The translations under genes were made by a program, and so were the position numbers. A stretch of DNA of 64,000 nt from Candidatus Woesearchaeota archaeon (GTDB taxonomy: Archaea; Nanobdellota; Nanobdellia; SCGC-AAA011-G17; GW2011-AR17). Positions 1,141-61,006 of the stretch are shown piece by piece (within the stretch, counting starts at the first letter, position 1; each line of letters begins with the position of its first letter). The notes below the pieces were generated by a model. That model saw only the letters and a list, made by a program, of their open reading frames with translations. It was not told the origin of the DNA and made no database searches. Location of the stretch: the NCBI GenBank assembly GCA_017608525.1, contig JAFCFS010000001.1, positions 1,934-65,933 of the forward strand, read 5' to 3'.

Positions 1141-1646
1141 TCCCTTTTATATAGATGTGCATCCGATATTTCTTCAATTTTATGAACAAATGGTTGGATA
1201 AAAATTGCTCCTGCTGCAAAATTAACAAATGCCAATACATTTAAATTAAGCAGAGTTATTGCAATAATTGGCGGAAAGAATAAAAGAACTTCTATAAACA
1301 AAGATCTAAATTTTTTAAAGTTTGTTCCGTATTGAAGACCGTAAATAAATATAAAAGTAGAAGCCAATAGTGTAAAATCTAAAGAATGCCTTAAAAGAAG
1401 CATTAGTACACCAAAATATAAATACTCTTTTCTTATTGCATAACCAATTAACATGCCAATTATAAAAAAGGTATAGTTTGGGAGACTAACGTAAAGCATA
1501 AATAGGCCAAGAAATATGCATATGAAGTTTTTAAGAGCTAAGAAATATTTTTTTCCAGGCTCCATTTCTTCTTTACATATTTTTGAAAGAAAAAATCCTA
1601 CAAAAATTCCTAAAAATGCAACAAGTGGAACCAATATTTCTAGCAT
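1137..1646 (-). CDS. polytopic membrane protein, unknown function
   Basis: 169-aa ORF made almost entirely of hydrophobic segments, roughly 5 predicted TM helices. Confidence 0.4.
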   Translation of the reverse strand: MLEILVPLVAFLGIFVGFFLSKICKEEMEPGKKYFLALKNFICIFLGLFMLYVSLPNYTFFIIGMLIGYAIRKEYLYFGVLMLLLRHSLDFTLLASTFIFIYGLQYGTNFKKFRSLFIEVLLFFPPIIAITLLNLNVLAFVNFAAGAIFIQPFVHKIEEISDAHLYKRD

Positions 1647-1690
1647 ATTTTAATTTAATACTTTCTAATTTTATAATTTTTTGGAGAAAA

Positions 1691-22621: not shown

Positions 22622-22694
22622 GCCACCGTAGCTTAGCGGCTAAAGCACGAGTCTCATGAGCTCGCGATCGCCGGTTCGAATCCGGCCGGTGGCA
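22622..22694 (+). tRNA. tRNA with CAT anticodon (elongator Met or Ile2-type)
   Basis: GCCACCG/CGGTGGC acceptor, D-arm GCTT-AGCGGCTA-AAGC, anticodon arm CGAGT-CTCATGA-GCTCG, T-arm GCCGG-TTCGAAT-CCGGC. It lacks initiator features (no A1:U72, no three G-C pairs at the stem base). Confidence 0.8.
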
Positions 22695-32996: not shown

Positions 32997-33752
32997 TTGT
33001 TTAAAATTTTTTTTGGAAAAGTTTATAAAAACCTCCTATTTGGGAAAGAAAAAATGTCATTAGAAAAAATCTTTAAAGAGAAAATTGAAAATGAAAACTC
33101 TAAAGATTTAAGTTTCGTCAAGCATGATTACTTAATTGAAGAAATACTAAAATTTATAGAAAAAGAACTGGGGAAAAACACTCTTGATTTCAATGGTGTA
33201 ACAAAAAGAACAAAAGATTTTATAAAAAATTATGGGATAACTCCAATGGACATTAGTAAATTGGTTTGTATCGCAAATGACTTTCAACAGGTAAAGAAGA
33301 TGAGGTATTTTCTCGGGACTATTTTTTCAGCAATAATTCAAGAATGCTATGAGCAAGGAAACAGATTTTTCAAATTCGAAAATCTAGAGATACCAGATTT
33401 TGGAAATTGCTTAAAATGTAGCGAAAATGAAAAAATCGAAATTGTGGTAGGGAGAGCAAATGCGGATAATTTATTTTCTGAAGCTCAAAATATTTCGATC
33501 AGTTGTGAAATTCTTGACACCGGTGCTTGGCTATTCTTACATAGAGCAAAAAATTGCTATGCTGAAATTAATAAAGCTAAAGGTTATTTTCTTTTCTGTG
33601 GAGCTGATGGGTGTAGGGCAAAAGTTATCGAATTGGACGAAGAAAAATATCCGTTATACAACTCAATAAATTGTTCACTTTATATAGAAAAAAGTGGGAT
33701 TAAATTAGAAACAACATACTTGGGATTTCTAGAAAGGTCTAAAAGGAAATGA
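32997..33752 (+). CDS. hypothetical protein (Cys-containing)
   Basis: 251-aa ORF. A more likely start is MSLEKIF at about 33054. No motif recognised. Confidence 0.35.
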   Translation: MFKIFFGKVYKNLLFGKEKMSLEKIFKEKIENENSKDLSFVKHDYLIEEILKFIEKELGKNTLDFNGVTKRTKDFIKNYGITPMDISKLVCIANDFQQVKKMRYFLGTIFSAIIQECYEQGNRFFKFENLEIPDFGNCLKCSENEKIEIVVGRANADNLFSEAQNISISCEILDTGAWLFLHRAKNCYAEINKAKGYFLFCGADGCRAKVIELDEEKYPLYNSINCSLYIEKSGIKLETTYLGFLERSKRK

Positions 33753-34000
33753 GAACTGTAAAAGAAGAGCTAAATAAAATCAAATGGGATAAAAGGGAAA
33801 ATCCAGAAGTTTATGAAATCGGGTATTATGATAGAATTTCACAAAAAGAGATAAGAATAAAATTTTGTGAGATAGAAAAAATAGAAGAAGGTTTCATTGT
33901 TGTTAGAGGGAAATTTATACCATTACACAGAATAAGAAAAATTTATAAGAAAGGAAGGCTGGTATGGGAAAGACATGGAATGCAAAAAAAACGAGAATAA
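33749..34000 (+). CDS. small conserved archaeal-type protein (possibly UPF0248/DUF504-like)
   Basis: 83 aa. [22 protein letters not shown] resembles the DUF504 C-terminal motif; assignment tentative. Confidence 0.3.
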
Positions 34001-37389: not shown

Positions 37390-37472
37390 GGGCCTATGAT
37401 GTAACGGATAGCATGCACGGCTTCGGATGCAGAAGAAACCGTGTCGTGGAGGTTCGAATCCTCCTAGGCCCA
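37390..37472 (+). tRNA. tRNA-Arg(TCG) with 11-nt intron at canonical position 37/38
   Basis: Acceptor GGGCCTA/TAGGCCC, D-arm ATGT-AACGGATA-GCAT, anticodon stem CACGG, loop CTTCGG^[ATGCAGAAGAA]^A, CCGTG, T-arm GGAGG-TTCGAAT-CCTCC. Loop residues CTTC pair with intron GAAG, giving a bulge-helix-bulge-like splice motif. Confidence 0.65.
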
Positions 37473-48483: not shown

Positions 48484-49443
48484 ATGAAAATAAAACAAAT
48501 ATATGACGATTTTATAGTGAAAGAAGTATCGGAAATAAATTTAGGTAGAGGAAATTATGCATATTTTATTTTAGAAAAATGGGGAATAGGAACACCAGAA
48601 GCAATAGGACTAATCGCTAAAAAAGCAAATGTAGAAAAAAAATTTATTAATTTCGCAGGGCTCAAGGATAAAAATGCACATACTTTTCAATATATTTCTT
48701 GTCCGAAATTTTTGAAAGCAAAACTTGAAAAATTAAAATTTAACAGAATTAAACTTAAATTTCTTGGTTATGGTAAAAAAAGAATTGGTATTGGAGATTT
48801 GAAAGCAAATGAATTCGTCATTACTATTAGGGATTTAGAAAAACCTATTGAAAAAAAAGTTGAACAAATACCAAATTATTTTGATGAACAAAGATTTGGC
48901 ACCGAAAGAAAAAATCATATAATTGGGAAGTTAATAATAAAAAAGGAATTTGAAAAAGTTTGTGAATTATTGAATCTGAAGGTTGAAGAAAAAGATTACA
49001 TTAATTCGTTGAGAAAAATCGGGATAAGAAATTTAAGATTTTATATCAGCGCCTATCAAAGTTATTTATTCAATAAACTTCTTTCAAATATTTTAAAAAG
49101 AAGAAAACATATAAGGGTGAAATATTCTTTGGGCAACTTTATTTTTCCTTTAAGAAAATTGAAGAACAAAAAAATAGATATCCCGGGATTTTTACATTAC
49201 AAAGGATATAAGTTGATTTTAAAGAAAGAGAAAATAAGACCTAAAGATTTTATAATTAATGAAATTCCTGAATTAAGTTCCGAGGGTGACAAAAGGGATA
49301 TGCTGGTTAAAGTTAAAAATTTCAAAATTCTCGGGTACAGTAAAGATGAATTAAATAAAGGAAAATTTAAAGAGAAAATTAGTTTTTTATTGCCAAAGGG
49401 AAGCTATGGTACTTTAGTTTTAAAATTTTTAGCAAGTAGTTAA
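48484..49443 (+). CDS. truD: tRNA pseudouridine synthase TruD/Pus7-family
   Basis: FIVKEV...GLKDKNAHTFQ (GxKDxxAxTxQ with catalytic Asp) and NYFDEQRFG. Confidence 0.7.
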   Translation: MKIKQIYDDFIVKEVSEINLGRGNYAYFILEKWGIGTPEAIGLIAKKANVEKKFINFAGLKDKNAHTFQYISCPKFLKAKLEKLKFNRIKLKFLGYGKKRIGIGDLKANEFVITIRDLEKPIEKKVEQIPNYFDEQRFGTERKNHIIGKLIIKKEFEKVCELLNLKVEEKDYINSLRKIGIRNLRFYISAYQSYLFNKLLSNILKRRKHIRVKYSLGNFIFPLRKLKNKKIDIPGFLHYKGYKLILKKEKIRPKDFIINEIPELSSEGDKRDMLVKVKNFKILGYSKDELNKGKFKEKISFLLPKGSYGTLVLKFLASS

Positions 49444-50321: not shown

Positions 50322-50452
50322 GGGCCCGTAGCTTAGCCTGGTGGAGCATCGGTCTTATATGGCACCATCGGCAACAGCCTAAGAGAGCCGAGGGTCAAGG
50401 GAAGACTCCAGCTCTTGCTGAAGTCTCTTGAATTCAAATCCCTTCGGGCCCA
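50322..50452 (+). tRNA. candidate tRNA-Ile(TAT) carrying two introns (26-nt at 37/38 and ~31-nt in the T-arm at 53/54)
   Basis: Exons assemble to a 74-nt cloverleaf: GGGCCCG-TA-GCTT-AGCCTGGTG-GAGC-A-TCGGT-CTTATA[intron]A-GCCGA-GGGTC-AAGGG[intron]TTCAAAT-CCCTT-CGGGCCC-A. Loop CTTA pairs with intron TAAG (BHB-like). The T-arm intron carries its own hairpin (GACTCCAGC/GCTGAAGTC). Confidence 0.5.
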
Positions 50453-51862
50453 CTATTTTTTAATTTTTTCAACATATTCTTCTATCTTCAACAATTTTGG
50501 TTTTTTGGCCTTCGCTCTTATAAATAAAATTACTAAGAAAACAACTAGTAGGATAATTACCACTACAATTGTTCTTAATATTTTTTTCTTTTTTTCCTCT
50601 CTTAATTCTTCTTTTGGTGTTTTGGTTTCTGTATAATTCACAATAACTACCTCCTTTTCCTTAGAAATATTTAATTCAACCAATTCTGTTTTATTTTTAA
50701 CTTCTTCTGCAACGTTAGTGAAAAGAAAAGACATTGGAAATTCTATCCTTCCTTCTTTACTGGAAACAATCAGATTTCCATAGTATAGTTTTCCAGGAAT
50801 TGCGTTCTTATCTTCGTTAACTACAATATTGAGGCTAGTTGTTTCGTAAGGTTGCAGTACATTGATTGTTTTTTTGTCTATTTTTACAATTTCATTAAGA
50901 TTACCATCTAACTTAATAGAAATCTGGTTTATTGGGTATTCTCCATCGTTTTTGAATTTAATTTCGCCAATGAAAATTTTGTTAACTGGAGCTCTTTTAC
51001 TTAATGATTTATTTTTCATCAAAAATTTAAGTTTAAATTCTTTCTCAACTATTTCGCAAGGTCCACAAACTCCACCACAATCAACACCCTCTTCACCCTC
51101 ATCCTTTACACCATTATTACAACAATCGTCAATTGCTTCGCATGGTCCACCACAATCAACACCTCTCTCACCTTGGTTTTTAATTCCATCGTTGCATGTT
51201 GGAGCTTCTTTCTCCTCTTTTTTAATGATTACTGGAATTTCGTAAAATTTGTTTCCGTAATTTAAAATGACACTCGTTTCTTTTACAGTTATATTTTTTA
51301 CATCAACTGAGAAATATACATTTAGTGAAGAAAGTGGTTCTATTATTAAACTCTCTCTAAATGGCCTAATTGCATCCTCGTTTGATTTTGGTTTTACTTC
51401 GGTTTTGTTGAGGCCCTTATTGCTTAATTTTATGGCGAAAGTTTTCGTGTCTTCCGTTACAAATACAATTGAAGGTTTTATACACAAGTATGGTTCCTCA
51501 TTTTTTATTGTAAAATTTTTATAAAAAGAAAATGTCTTTAGCGTTGCATTTATTCTTTTTTTATAAGAGATCACAATACTACAATCGCTCTCCTCAAGCT
51601 CTGGTAATTCAAAAGATAAAAAATACGTGTTATTCTTTAGATGAAAAATTAAAAGACCAATATCTATTTTTGTTTCGTTACAAATCAATTTTACATTCTC
51701 TGGTGTAAGTAAAATTTCTGAATAAACCCAAAATTGAACACTTTCGTATTCTGAATAAGTATCTCTTTCTATTTTAATTGTGTCTTCACCATAAACGAAA
51801 GGAAAGAGAAAAACAAACAACAAAAATATACAAAATAATTTACTTTCTTTGAAAAATTTCAT
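50453..51862 (-). CDS. secreted/surface protein with Cys-rich modules and C-terminal TM anchor
   Basis: N-terminal signal (LFCIFLLFVFLFPFVYG), a C-terminal TM (ILRTIVVVIILLVVFLVILFI), and an internal module PTCNDGIKNQGERGVDCGGPCEAIDDCCNNGVKDEGEEGVDCGGVCGPCE shared with the next gene. Confidence 0.5.
   Translation of the reverse strand: MKFFKESKLFCIFLLFVFLFPFVYGEDTIKIERDTYSEYESVQFWVYSEILLTPENVKLICNETKIDIGLLIFHLKNNTYFLSFELPELEESDCSIVISYKKRINATLKTFSFYKNFTIKNEEPYLCIKPSIVFVTEDTKTFAIKLSNKGLNKTEVKPKSNEDAIRPFRESLIIEPLSSLNVYFSVDVKNITVKETSVILNYGNKFYEIPVIIKKEEKEAPTCNDGIKNQGERGVDCGGPCEAIDDCCNNGVKDEGEEGVDCGGVCGPCEIVEKEFKLKFLMKNKSLSKRAPVNKIFIGEIKFKNDGEYPINQISIKLDGNLNEIVKIDKKTINVLQPYETTSLNIVVNEDKNAIPGKLYYGNLIVSSKEGRIEFPMSFLFTNVAEEVKNKTELVELNISKEKEVVIVNYTETKTPKEELREEKKKKILRTIVVVIILLVVFLVILFIRAKAKKPKLLKIEEYVEKIKK
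51053..51204. repeat. 152-bp direct repeat copy A (97% identical to 52393-52544)
   Basis: Aligned by eye, with 4 mismatches. Encodes the shared 50-aa Cys-rich module in the two adjacent paralogous surface-protein genes. Confidence 0.85.
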
Positions 51863-58857: not shown

Positions 58858-59334
58858 TTGTATATGTCTATAAGGAAAATGTTGATTACAGTAATTTTTT
58901 TAATTCTGATTTTAGAATTAAAGTTCGGACTCTTTCATAATTTTTCAAAAAAATCTAGTGCCTTAGTTATTAAAGTTATAGATGGAGACACAATTGTTAT
59001 AGAAAGTGGAGAAAGAGTAAGGTTATTGGGTATAGATGCCCCAGAAAAAGGTGAAAATTATTACAAGGAAGCAAAAGAAAGGCTGGAAGATTTAATTTTA
59101 TTTAAGAATGTAACTCTAGAAAGTTATGGAAGGAATAGAGACAAATATGGAAGATTATTGAGATATATTTGGGTTAATGAAGAGAACATTAATATCAAAA
59201 TGATTAAAGAAGGATTTGCATTTCCATATATAGAAAAGAACACAAAATATAAGGATGAATTAATTTATGCCGCAAAAACAGCAATGCTCAATAAATCTAA
59301 TTTATGGAAAGCTAGAAAAAAATTTAAACGCTAG
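58858..59334 (+). CDS. membrane-anchored staphylococcal-nuclease (SNase/thermonuclease) homolog
   Basis: N-terminal TM, then VIKVIDGDTIVIESGERVRLLGIDAPEKGENYYKEAKERLEDL..YGRLL, the classic SNase Ca2+/active-site pattern. Confidence 0.75.
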   Translation: MYMSIRKMLITVIFLILILELKFGLFHNFSKKSSALVIKVIDGDTIVIESGERVRLLGIDAPEKGENYYKEAKERLEDLILFKNVTLESYGRNRDKYGRLLRYIWVNEENINIKMIKEGFAFPYIEKNTKYKDELIYAAKTAMLNKSNLWKARKKFKR

Positions 59335-59350
59335 GAATATTAAAGATTTT

Positions 59351-61006
59351 ATGGAAAAAGAAATAACTAAATATGCTTTGCTTAATGCTATTAAATTTGA
59401 TGGTAAGGCCAATCCTGGTGCTGTGATGGGAAAGCTCATTTCTGAACATCCGGAATTAAAACAAAATGCTAAAGAATTAAGCAAGAAAGTTTTGTCCATT
59501 GTTAAGGAAATAAACAAACTAAGTCTAGGAGAACAAAAGAAAAAATTTTCAGAACTTTTTCCAGAATATAAAGAAAGAAAGAAAAAAGAGAAAGAGAAAG
59601 ATTTGCCTCCACTAAAAAAAGTTAAGTATGGTAAAATAGTTACGAGAATTGCTCCTGAGCCAAGCAAACACATACACCTTGGCCATGCTTTAAGCTTCGT
59701 AATTAACTATTACTATGCAAAAAGGTATGGAGGAAAATGTATACTAAGATTCGAAGATACAAATCCAGCAACTGCAAAAAAAGAATTCTACAAAGAAATA
59801 GAAAAAGACATAAAGTGGTTGAAAATAAATTACGATAAAAAATTGATTGTTTCCAACCACATGCCAATTTTTTATAAATATGCAAAAAAATTGATTGAAA
59901 AAGGAAATGCATATGTTTGTTTCTGTCCAAAAGAAAAAATGGACAGGTTTAGACAGAAAAGCATGATTTGTGATTGCAGAGAAAATTCTGTTGAAAAAAA
60001 CTTAATCGAATGGAAAAAGATGTTATCAAAAAAATACAAGGAAGGGGAATGTACATTGAGATTGAAGGGAATTATGGATTCTTTTAATGCTGTAATGAGA
60101 GACCCTGTTATATTTAGGATATGCAAGGAAAAACACCCAATTCAAGGGAAAAAATATGCTGTGTGGCCAATGTATGATTTTGAAAATGCAATTGAAGACT
60201 CGATTAATGGGGTAACACACATTTTTAGAAGTTCAGAATTCGGAACGATGAGGGTTGAGCTTCAAAACTATATAAAAGAATTACTAAATTTGAAAAAGCA
60301 AGAAGTTGTTCAATACACAAGATTTAATGTAATCGGTGCAATAACAAAAGGGAGAGAAATAAGAAAATTAATTAAAGAAAAAAAGGTTATTGGTTGGGAC
60401 GATCCTAGGCTAGTAACGATAAAAGCTTTGAGAAGAAGAGGAATACAACCTGAAACATTTCACGAATTGATTAAGGAAGTTGGTATAAGCCTTTCTTCGA
60501 AGAATATAGATTTCAGTTTGGTCGCTTCGATAAACAGAAAAATTTTGGATCCAATAACTCCCAGGTATTTTTTCGTTGCTAACCCAAAGTTAATAAAGAT
60601 TAAAAATGCACCAAAAATGGTAGCGGAAATTGAAGTGCATCCAGACAAACCAGAAATGGGAAAAAGGAAACTTATAGCTCATGACAAATTTTATGTTTCT
60701 GATGACATAAAAAAAGGAAAAATATACAGACTAAAGCACCTTTTTAACTTTAAAGATTTTAAATTCATTTCAACAGATTATATACCACAATTAAATGCTG
60801 AAATAATACACTGGTTGCCGGCAGACAAAAAACAATTAGTTAAAGCAGAAATTCTTATGCCGGACTGTAAACTTATAAAAGGATTTGCTGAAAAATCTGT
60901 AAAAAGACTTAAGATAGGAAGCATAGTCCAATTTGAAAGATTTGGTTTTTGTAGACTAGATAAAAAATTAAAAAATTCTTTGAGATTTTGGTTTACTCAT
61001 AAATAA
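59351..61006 (+). CDS. gltX: glutamyl-tRNA synthetase (archaeal/eukaryal-type GlxRS) with N-terminal GatB/YqeY-like appended domain
   Basis: N-terminal KYALLNAIKFDGKANPGAVMGKLIS (YqeY-like), then the class I core with HIGH variant PSKHIHLGHALS and GlxRS catalytic and anticodon-binding domains. Start chosen at MEKEITKY (59351) to avoid overlap with the nuclease gene. Confidence 0.85.
   Translation: MEKEITKYALLNAIKFDGKANPGAVMGKLISEHPELKQNAKELSKKVLSIVKEINKLSLGEQKKKFSELFPEYKERKKKEKEKDLPPLKKVKYGKIVTRIAPEPSKHIHLGHALSFVINYYYAKRYGGKCILRFEDTNPATAKKEFYKEIEKDIKWLKINYDKKLIVSNHMPIFYKYAKKLIEKGNAYVCFCPKEKMDRFRQKSMICDCRENSVEKNLIEWKKMLSKKYKEGECTLRLKGIMDSFNAVMRDPVIFRICKEKHPIQGKKYAVWPMYDFENAIEDSINGVTHIFRSSEFGTMRVELQNYIKELLNLKKQEVVQYTRFNVIGAITKGREIRKLIKEKKVIGWDDPRLVTIKALRRRGIQPETFHELIKEVGISLSSKNIDFSLVASINRKILDPITPRYFFVANPKLIKIKNAPKMVAEIEVHPDKPEMGKRKLIAHDKFYVSDDIKKGKIYRLKHLFNFKDFKFISTDYIPQLNAEIIHWLPADKKQLVKAEILMPDCKLIKGFAEKSVKRLKIGSIVQFERFGFCRLDKKLKNSLRFWFTHK

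Follow-up and report, generated by a model that had tools for sequence, protein, structure and literature searches.

Which tRNA reads AUA in an archaeon that relies heavily on this codon, and can a gene interrupted twice, once within its T-arm, supply it? The question is raised by a 131-nt gene at 50322-50452 (+) in a 64-kb stretch of DNA (hereafter the window, meaning the whole stretch that was analysed). An earlier note, whose quoted sequence for this interval we confirmed, had read the gene as tRNA-Ile(UAU) with two introns, one of them in the T-arm. Rfam alignment and ARAGORN annotation of the spliced sequence upheld that reading. We regard it as very probable that the locus is a genuine, functional three-exon, two-intron tRNA-Ile(UAU) gene of a DPANN (Woesearchaeota/Nanoarchaeia-type) archaeon, and that its product reads AUA. 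Most archaea read this codon via the agmatidine (TiaS) route.

The gene and its predicted mature product

The gene matched the Rfam tRNA family RF00005 from end to end (model positions 1-71) with a score of 34.6 bits, above the gathering score of 29 (E = 0.0017 when all of the window was compared with 4227 families). Two large insertions, and no more, interrupt the alignment, at the anticodon loop and at the T-loop; together these (26 + 31 nt) make up the 57 extra nucleotides noticed earlier between the tRNA halves. Their removal in silico (Table 1) left a 74-nt product that forms a standard cloverleaf and was named tRNA-Ile(tat) by ARAGORN. Its 7-bp acceptor, 4-bp D, 5-bp anticodon, and 5-bp T stems are all perfectly paired, its anticodon and T loops are 7 nt each, and it carries U33, A37, the T-loop UUCAAAU, G53-C61, and A73. 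The spliced anticodon loop is CUUAUAA, with the anticodon U34 A35 U36 at 50356-50358, U33 before it and a purine at 37. Rfam alignment and splicing defined by the bulge-helix-bulge (BHB) rule agreed on this placement, and the loop and anticodon given in the earlier note therefore stand. Charging with isoleucine and the reading of AUA, and not AUG, are predicted. The gene has 56% GC, against ~31% for the window. Its 5′ half (GGGCCCGUAGCU...CUUAUA), T-loop, and 3′ end (CGGGCCCA) are common to at least ~80 DPANN tRNA-Ile(UAU) genes.

Codon usage shows a clear demand for such a tRNA. In 36 long open reading frames (ORFs) of the window, ATA accounted for 661 of 1472 Ile codons (44.9%) and for 4.4% of all codons, which makes an AUA decoder indispensable. 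No other AUA decoder was found in the window by ARAGORN or Rfam. The earlier note predicted that tiaS would be missing; no TiaS Pfam domain was present among the ~58 ORFs scanned within the 64-kb window, and the host as a whole may lack the enzyme.

The acceptor stem of the window's single CAU tRNA, at 22622-22694 (+), reads GCCACCG and does not resemble that of Ile tRNAs; the loop of this tRNA is CUCAUGA, with G37 instead of A37. G37 beside an anticodon for an A-starting codon is unusual. Judged by these features, this gene probably encodes an elongator tRNA-Met rather than tRNA-Ile2(CAU).

The host was assigned from its proteins. The best named relatives of the GluRS encoded at 59267-61006 were in Candidatus Woesearchaeota and Nanoarchaeia, and the Pfam scan of the ~58 ORFs recovered LonB, aIF2-alpha, GINS, primase, PheRS alpha and beta, HisRS, CysRS, TruD, ThiI, and prefoldin. 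By this content the host is archaeal and DPANN, Woesearchaeota-like. The UAU anticodon and the multiple introns, which the earlier note expected to carry phylogenetic information, do point to DPANN, but the protein content already showed as much.

Among 167 mostly cultivated genomes, tRNA-Ile(UAU) was reported only in Korarchaeum and Nanoarchaeum (PMC6000648). It has also been reported from ARMAN-2, -4, and -5, and ARMAN lack both TiaS and tRNA-Ile(CAU) (PMC3239211). The earlier statement that a UAU isoleucine tRNA is rare in archaea holds outside DPANN but not within, where at least ~80 genes were found. We found no literature linking agmatidine and DPANN. For Woesearchaeota tRNAs, introns, or anticodons, the sole relevant item found was a study of the tRNA-splicing endonuclease EndA (PMC5829648).

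Splice motifs of the two introns

The BHB rule was coded as two 3-nt bulges on opposite strands, separated by a 4-bp helix (H) and each cut after its second nucleotide, with additional helices on the outer (h) and inner (h′) side. At the first intron (37/38), C32U33U34A35 pairs with UAAG (4/4 pairs) and the bulges are U36-A37-U (UAU) and A-G-A38 (AGA). The inner helix is GGC/GCC (3 bp), and the anticodon stem (5 bp) serves as outer helix, giving (H, h′, h) = (4, 3, 5). Intron 1 is a strict hBHBh′ (3-4-3) motif, and the 26-nt insert after position 37, drawn earlier within a CTTA/TAAG helix with 3-nt bulges, was borne out in full. Across 57 distinct homologs, 90.5% of cells were paired, compared with 27-46% when the partners were slid. 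Intron boundaries were set without reference to BHB in this test; because the search pattern already specified the 5′ strand of H, the informative variation lay in the anticodon stem and h′.

The earlier note had named a different intron register, giving another anticodon, as an outcome that would overturn it. An exhaustive scan did find further 4-bp H pairs near the anticodon, at gene positions 38-65, 38-75, and 38-82, which could be taken to argue that the gene is not Ile(UAU) at all. However, no usable alternative emerged: these registers leave a 5-nt loop or delete the 3′ strand of the anticodon stem, and none restores a cloverleaf. The BHB-like candidate at 38-65 was rejected for its 5-nt loop. 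Only 39-64 has all three helices, the pairing of C32U33U34A35 with the intron is conserved in the 57 homologs, and Rfam places the anticodon identically. The chance that another register is the true one is close to nil.

At the second intron (53/54), C48A49A50G51 pairs with CUUG (4/4 pairs), the 5′ bulge is G52-G53-A, and the 3′ side is A-A-U54. The inner helix AGACU/AGUCU (5 bp) is extended by a 4-bp CAGC/GCUG helix around a UCUU loop, and the whole insert hairpin reads AGACU-c-CAGC UCUU GCUG-a-AGUCU. The claim of a ~31-nt insert between the T-stem strand AAGGG and the T-loop, with a hairpin of its own, was thus correct, and the 4-bp CAAG/CUUG helix can be added to it. A strict outer helix was sought and was absent (h = 0) both in the window gene and in its relative L093, described below, and (H, h′, h) here is (4, 5, 0). 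Intron 2 is a relaxed HBh′ motif and not a full BHB. The BHB-like context proposed earlier therefore applies to both introns, but for the second only in this relaxed form. With the outer helix missing, removal of intron 2 needs a broad-specificity EndA. From the local fold, one could at most speculate that G44-G46 pair with C61-C63 and so stand in for the outer helix, the 3′ loop then being enlarged to 8-9 nt. The T-stem must open for H to form, and the two conformers were calculated at -42.0 (BHB) and -42.2 kcal/mol (T-stem).

Covariation at the second intron was examined in fixed-offset junction constructs from eight distinct tRNAs with a 53/54 intron. H and h′ were paired in 97.2% of cells, compared with 26-46% when slid; seven of the nine pairs were changed on both sides, and the observed values were reached in 0 of 500 shuffles. 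T-stem positions 49/50 vary (AA, CU, UU, GA, GC, GU), and intron positions b-3/b-4 follow them. At both introns, the cut sites dictated by the BHB rule are the very sites that restore the cloverleaf (9 and 12 specified pairs, respectively). This coincidence, together with compensatory changes in independent homologs, indicates more than chance.

These data also bear on whether only the anticodon-loop intron is spliced, with the 31-nt T-arm insert staying in the mature RNA as an extra hairpin. The minimum free energy (MFE) fold would allow it, as a helix resembling the T-stem persists there and the insert hairpin stacks onto that helix. However, all elongator tRNAs need the tertiary core formed by T-loop and D-loop, as is established for tRNA structure, and an insertion that separates G53 from U54 would disrupt this core. 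Moreover, the 4-bp helix and 3-nt bulge covary at a fixed distance from the junction in eight tRNAs of three anticodon classes. Such covariation, at a constant distance from both 53/54 junctions, is explained by splice-site recognition and is not predicted for a passive hairpin. Relaxed motifs of this kind are cut inefficiently by strict alpha4 and alpha′2 endonucleases (PMC5829648), which favours retention, but 53/54 is an established intron site (PMC3239211). Taken together, retention of the insert appears extremely improbable.

Some observations weigh against a functional gene spliced at both sites. Its Rfam score is modest, which we attribute to insertion penalties, and intron 2 is without the strict BHB outer helix. 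Folded without constraints, the 131-nt precursor has an MFE structure (-50.9 kcal/mol) that differs from both proposed conformers. Finally, C48, G51-G53, the A that opens the intron, and the GAA that closes it were all specified by the pattern used to retrieve the 53/54 homologs, which left only positions 49/50 and the inner helix free to vary in the covariation test.

Part of this could reflect decay, that is, an old tRNA-Ile gene with two insertions that is no longer processed or used. ARAGORN called four other tRNAs in the window and missed 50322-50452, the gene has the lowest Rfam score of the window's five tRNAs, and the missing outer helix of the second motif would fit as well. Against decay, every stem of the cloverleaf is perfectly paired once spliced in silico, and both insertions lie exactly at BHB-predicted cleavage sites. 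The architecture is also kept, with compensatory changes, in two other tRNA-Ile(UAU) genes (L093 and L127), and a host with AUA at 45% of its Ile codons needs a decoder, of which no other was seen in the window. We consider a pseudogene very improbable and retain the interpretation of a functional two-intron tRNA-Ile(UAU) gene.

Relatives, flanking features and neighbouring genes

One genome per GTDB species was scanned with the 5′-half pattern GGGCCCGTAGCT-N9-13-GCR-N5-CTTATA, which gave at least 120 matches (L001-L120), and metagenomes were scanned for the 53/54 junction, which yielded nine loci. Neither set of listed matches contained the window's own contig. At least ~80 genome matches were DPANN, from Woesearchaeota, Micrarchaeota, Undinarchaeota, Aenigmarchaeota, Pacearchaeota, Iainarchaeota, Nanopusillaceae, Nanobsidianus, and Haiyanarchaeum. 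These relatives share the 5′ half and anticodon loop of the window gene, but their introns are unrelated to its own in sequence and their flanking genes are not syntenic with it.

Among the matches listed, a 37/38 insertion of 16-186 nt was present in 79 of 82 archaeal-type tRNA-Ile(UAU) genes. About a quarter of these (~20 of 79) were interrupted in the T-loop as well, with few exceptions at 59/60 or 58/59. The earlier note had called a multi-intron tRNA lineage-restricted; within DPANN, multi-intron versions of this tRNA are common. Introns at 59/60 and 58/59 form a strict BHB with the T-stem as outer helix, whereas that of the window gene lies at 53/54 and is relaxed. Relatives combining 37/38 and 59/60 introns include L018, L009, and L099. 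In some loci (L013, L023, L037, L089), the second intron at 58/59 or 59/60 exceeds 100 nt.

The 53/54 layout was found in just one genome match among those listed, L093 (LSSJ01000031.1, 'archaeon SM23-78'). Its introns are also 26 and 31 nt long, and although only 13 of 31 positions of intron 2 are identical to the window's, every helix is kept by compensatory change. The nine metagenome loci comprised the L093 sequence twice more, L127, L129, and four tRNA-Lys sequences (five loci). L127, on a metagenome contig, is a third tRNA-Ile(UAU) gene with two introns, one at 53/54. Both L093 and L127 share with the window gene the 53/54 site and the junction GGA...GAA\|UUCAAAU, and these three were the only tRNA-Ile(UAU) genes with a 53/54 second intron among the matches listed. 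Thus, in this survey, DPANN tRNA-Ile(UAU) genes normally carry a 37/38 intron, and a second intron, where there is one, alternates in position between 59/60 (common) and 53/54 (rare).

The same junction occurred in tRNA-Lys(UUU) and tRNA-Lys(CUU) genes (L121, L122, L124, L125, L126), some of which also have a 37/38 intron, so the 53/54 site is common to several tRNA identities in these communities. L129 (Ga0190359_1043832, 1532-1683 (+)) is a 152-nt tRNA-Ile(GAU) gene. Further inserts interrupt its D-loop region and anticodon loop, and the 53/54 intron, 31 nt long, matches that of the L093 tRNA-Ile(UAU) gene at 25 of 31 positions. This likeness suggests either that the UAU gene arose by duplication of a GAU gene or that the intron moved between isoacceptors.

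About 37 of the matches listed were intron-less bacterial genes with the GGGCCCGTAGCT...CTTATA 5′ half, from Candidate Phyla Radiation (CPR)/Patescibacteria, Chloroflexi, proteobacterial metagenome-assembled genomes (MAGs), and Streptomyces. Examples of these tRNA-Ile(UAU)-like genes are L001, L004, L005, L010, L026, L040, L044, and L095, with ~30 other loci. L045 is a 102-nt intron-containing gene in a MAG labelled Binatia bacterium and is probably a mis-binned archaeal contig.

The survey bears on how AUA is discriminated from AUG in archaea without agmatidine. The 37/38 intron is near-universal (79/82 listed), though its length and sequence are unconstrained. One explanation, which we regard as unlikely, is that the intron of archaeal tRNA-Ile(UAU) is kept by selection, the precursor serving as substrate for a modification of U34/U36 that would block AUG reading. 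It may then be an archaeal counterpart of the intron-dependent formation of pseudouridine (Psi) at positions 34 and 36 in yeast (PMC4090602). The T-arm intron, under the same explanation, may be a neutral passenger tolerated by a broad-specificity endonuclease. As a rough control, ARAGORN reported introns in other tRNAs of the same loci in 3/21 Gly(GCC), 4/18 Glu(UUC), and 0/9 Val(UAC) genes, counts that are a rough upper bound only. Its intron search is unreliable here, relabelling parts of tRNA-Ile(UAU) as Ser(tga) and reporting introns of hundreds of nucleotides.

The layout of the gene and its flanks is given in Table 1.

Table 1. Elements of the tRNA-Ile(UAU) gene and its putative flanking signals (window positions)
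Feature	Position	Strand	Description
TATA-box-like element TTAAAAATAAA	50289..50299	+	-33 to -23 from first tRNA nucleotide; putative archaeal promoter, read from sequence
Exon 1, 38 nt	50322..50359	+	Acceptor 5′ strand, D-arm, anticodon-stem 5′ strand, loop 32-37 (CUUAUA); Rfam, in-silico splicing, ARAGORN
Intron 1, 26 nt, UGGCACCAUCGGCAACAGCCUAAGAG	50360..50385	+	Position 37/38, strict hBHBh′
Exon 2, 16 nt	50386..50401	+	A38, anticodon-stem 3′ strand GCCGA, variable loop GGGUC, T-stem 5′ strand AAGGG
Intron 2, 31 nt, AAGACUCCAGCUCUUGCUGAAGUCUCUUGAA	50402..50432	+	Position 53/54, relaxed HBh′
Exon 3, 20 nt	50433..50452	+	T-loop UUCAAAU, T-stem CCCUU, acceptor CGGGCCC, discriminator A73, no CCA
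Two T6 runs TTTTTTAATTTTTT	50456..50469	+	From 4 nt past discriminator; putative oligo-T transcription stop

Upstream of 77 homologous intron-containing genes, the A+T fraction peaked at 0.82-0.91 at -30 to -27, over a background of ~0.6. This peak lies at the same distance as TTAAAAATAAA, for which a promoter role is putative, A/T-rich runs being common in a 31% GC genome. Within 10 nt downstream, 37 of 80 homologs had four or more consecutive T, and TTTTTTAATTTTTT may likewise act as an oligo-T terminator. CCA was encoded in just 4 of 80 homologs. The stop codon of a 469-aa ORF with no Pfam match, at 50453-51862 (-), abuts the discriminator base of the tRNA. Because this ORF is convergent with and abuts the tRNA gene, the putative terminator would fall inside its Lys/Asn-rich C-terminal coding sequence.

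A gene for a TruD/Pus7-family pseudouridine synthase lies ~880 nt upstream of the tRNA gene, at 48484-49443 (+), and the mature loop U34-A35-U36-A37-A38 fits the loose Pus7 target pattern, UNUAR. When six neighbouring proteins, including TruD/Pus7, were compared by tblastn with 129 related loci, a single weak match was obtained. We therefore abandoned the notion that the Pus7 and tRNA-Ile(UAU) genes form a functional pair: their adjacency was conserved in none of the 129 loci and is probably coincidental.

Elsewhere in the window, a small protein with an MJ1316 'RNA cyclic group end recognition' domain (PF04457, E = 2e-18) is encoded at 33749-34000 (+). Cyclic RNA ends are products of the tRNA-splicing endonuclease. 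Another intron-containing tRNA gene, at 37390-37472 (+), was labelled Pro(cgg) by ARAGORN, or SeC(tca) with the intron search on. Rfam and the BHB register instead give the loop CUUCGGA and tRNA-Arg(UCG), with an 11-nt mini-intron, ATGCAGAAGAA, at 37/38 (H 4/4, h 6, h′ 1). Automatic annotation would probably mis-assign this gene.

Proposed processing and comparison with known systems

A processing pathway can be proposed from established archaeal tRNA biology (PMC3239211, PMC5829648, PMC4090602). Transcription would start from the TATA-type promoter ~27 nt upstream and stop at the oligo-T tract. The ends would then be trimmed and CCA, since none is encoded, added after transcription. EndA would make four cuts in the precursor, at the strict BHB at 37/38 and the relaxed motif at 53/54, every one of them directly after nucleotide 2 of a 3-nt bulge. 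The second motif would be presented when C48-G51 pair with the 3′ end of the intron instead of forming the T-stem, the two conformers being predicted to be near-equal in energy. An RtcB-type ligase would join the three exons into the 74-nt tRNA, which IleRS would charge. The mature tRNA would read AUA without the agmatidine (TiaS) route, with U34 presumably modified or otherwise kept from AUG.

Given the relaxed second motif, an EndA of broad specificity is to be expected in this lineage. In DPANN, alpha4 EndAs with an L3 loop are associated with more disruption of tRNA genes, and a Woesearchaeota genome is one of the cases (PMC5829648). No splicing-endonuclease (EndA) domain was present among the ~58 window ORFs scanned with Pfam.

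AUA is one of the two main Ile codons in this host, yet its decoder gene escapes ARAGORN. As that gene's score with a generic tRNA model is low too, automatic annotation would report the AUA decoder as missing from this genome and from similar DPANN genomes. The gene adds a further case, supported by comparison with homologs, of a tRNA that needs two endonuclease-dependent splicing events.

Among known systems, tRNA-Ile(UAU) of yeast (eukaryotic nuclear) resembles the window gene in using UAU for AUA and in having an obligatory intron beside the anticodon (PMC4090602). The yeast intron is a recognition element for Pus1, which makes Psi34 and Psi36 (PMC4090602); such dependence is not known from archaea. 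The eukaryotic gene also differs in having no T-arm intron, and the eukaryotic endonuclease measures from the mature domain and does not depend on BHB alone.

In Nanoarchaeum equitans and Korarchaeum cryptofilum, too, a genome-encoded UAU anticodon replaces the TiaS/tRNA-Ile2(CAU) route, and the Korarchaeum gene also bears an intron (PMC6000648). Unlike the window gene, these genes have a single intron and belong to hyperthermophilic, GC-richer hosts. Nanoarchaeota relatives in our survey, L097 (Nanobsidianus) and L024 (Nanopusillaceae), have an 18-nt 37/38 intron.

The ARMAN-2 (Candidatus Micrarchaeum acidiphilum) pre-tRNA-Ile(UAU) shares the DPANN affiliation, the isoacceptor, and a strict hBHBh′ intron at 37/38 that is only slightly shorter (25 nt, against 26 nt here); in vitro, this pre-tRNA was cleaved by ARMAN-2 EndA (Fujishima et al. 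2011, PMC3239211). It was described with that single intron, whereas the window gene has a second at 53/54 and comes from a different, Woesearchaeota-like DPANN lineage. T-arm introns are known from ARMAN-2 as well, for example at 53/54 and 59/60 in tRNA-Pro(GGG) (PMC3239211). The ARMAN-2 T-arm introns resemble the window's in the 53/54 site, in the presence of several introns per gene, and in BHB-type motifs formed by exon-intron pairing. However, the T-loop introns of ARMAN-2 were described as strict hBHBh′, in contrast to the relaxed HBh′ at 53/54 here, and the tRNA identity also differs. Every component of the window gene has thus been described before in ARMAN, Nanoarchaeum, or Korarchaeum, and its combination of an Ile-UAU identity with a 37/38 intron and a relaxed 53/54 intron is a rare variant within a common DPANN theme.

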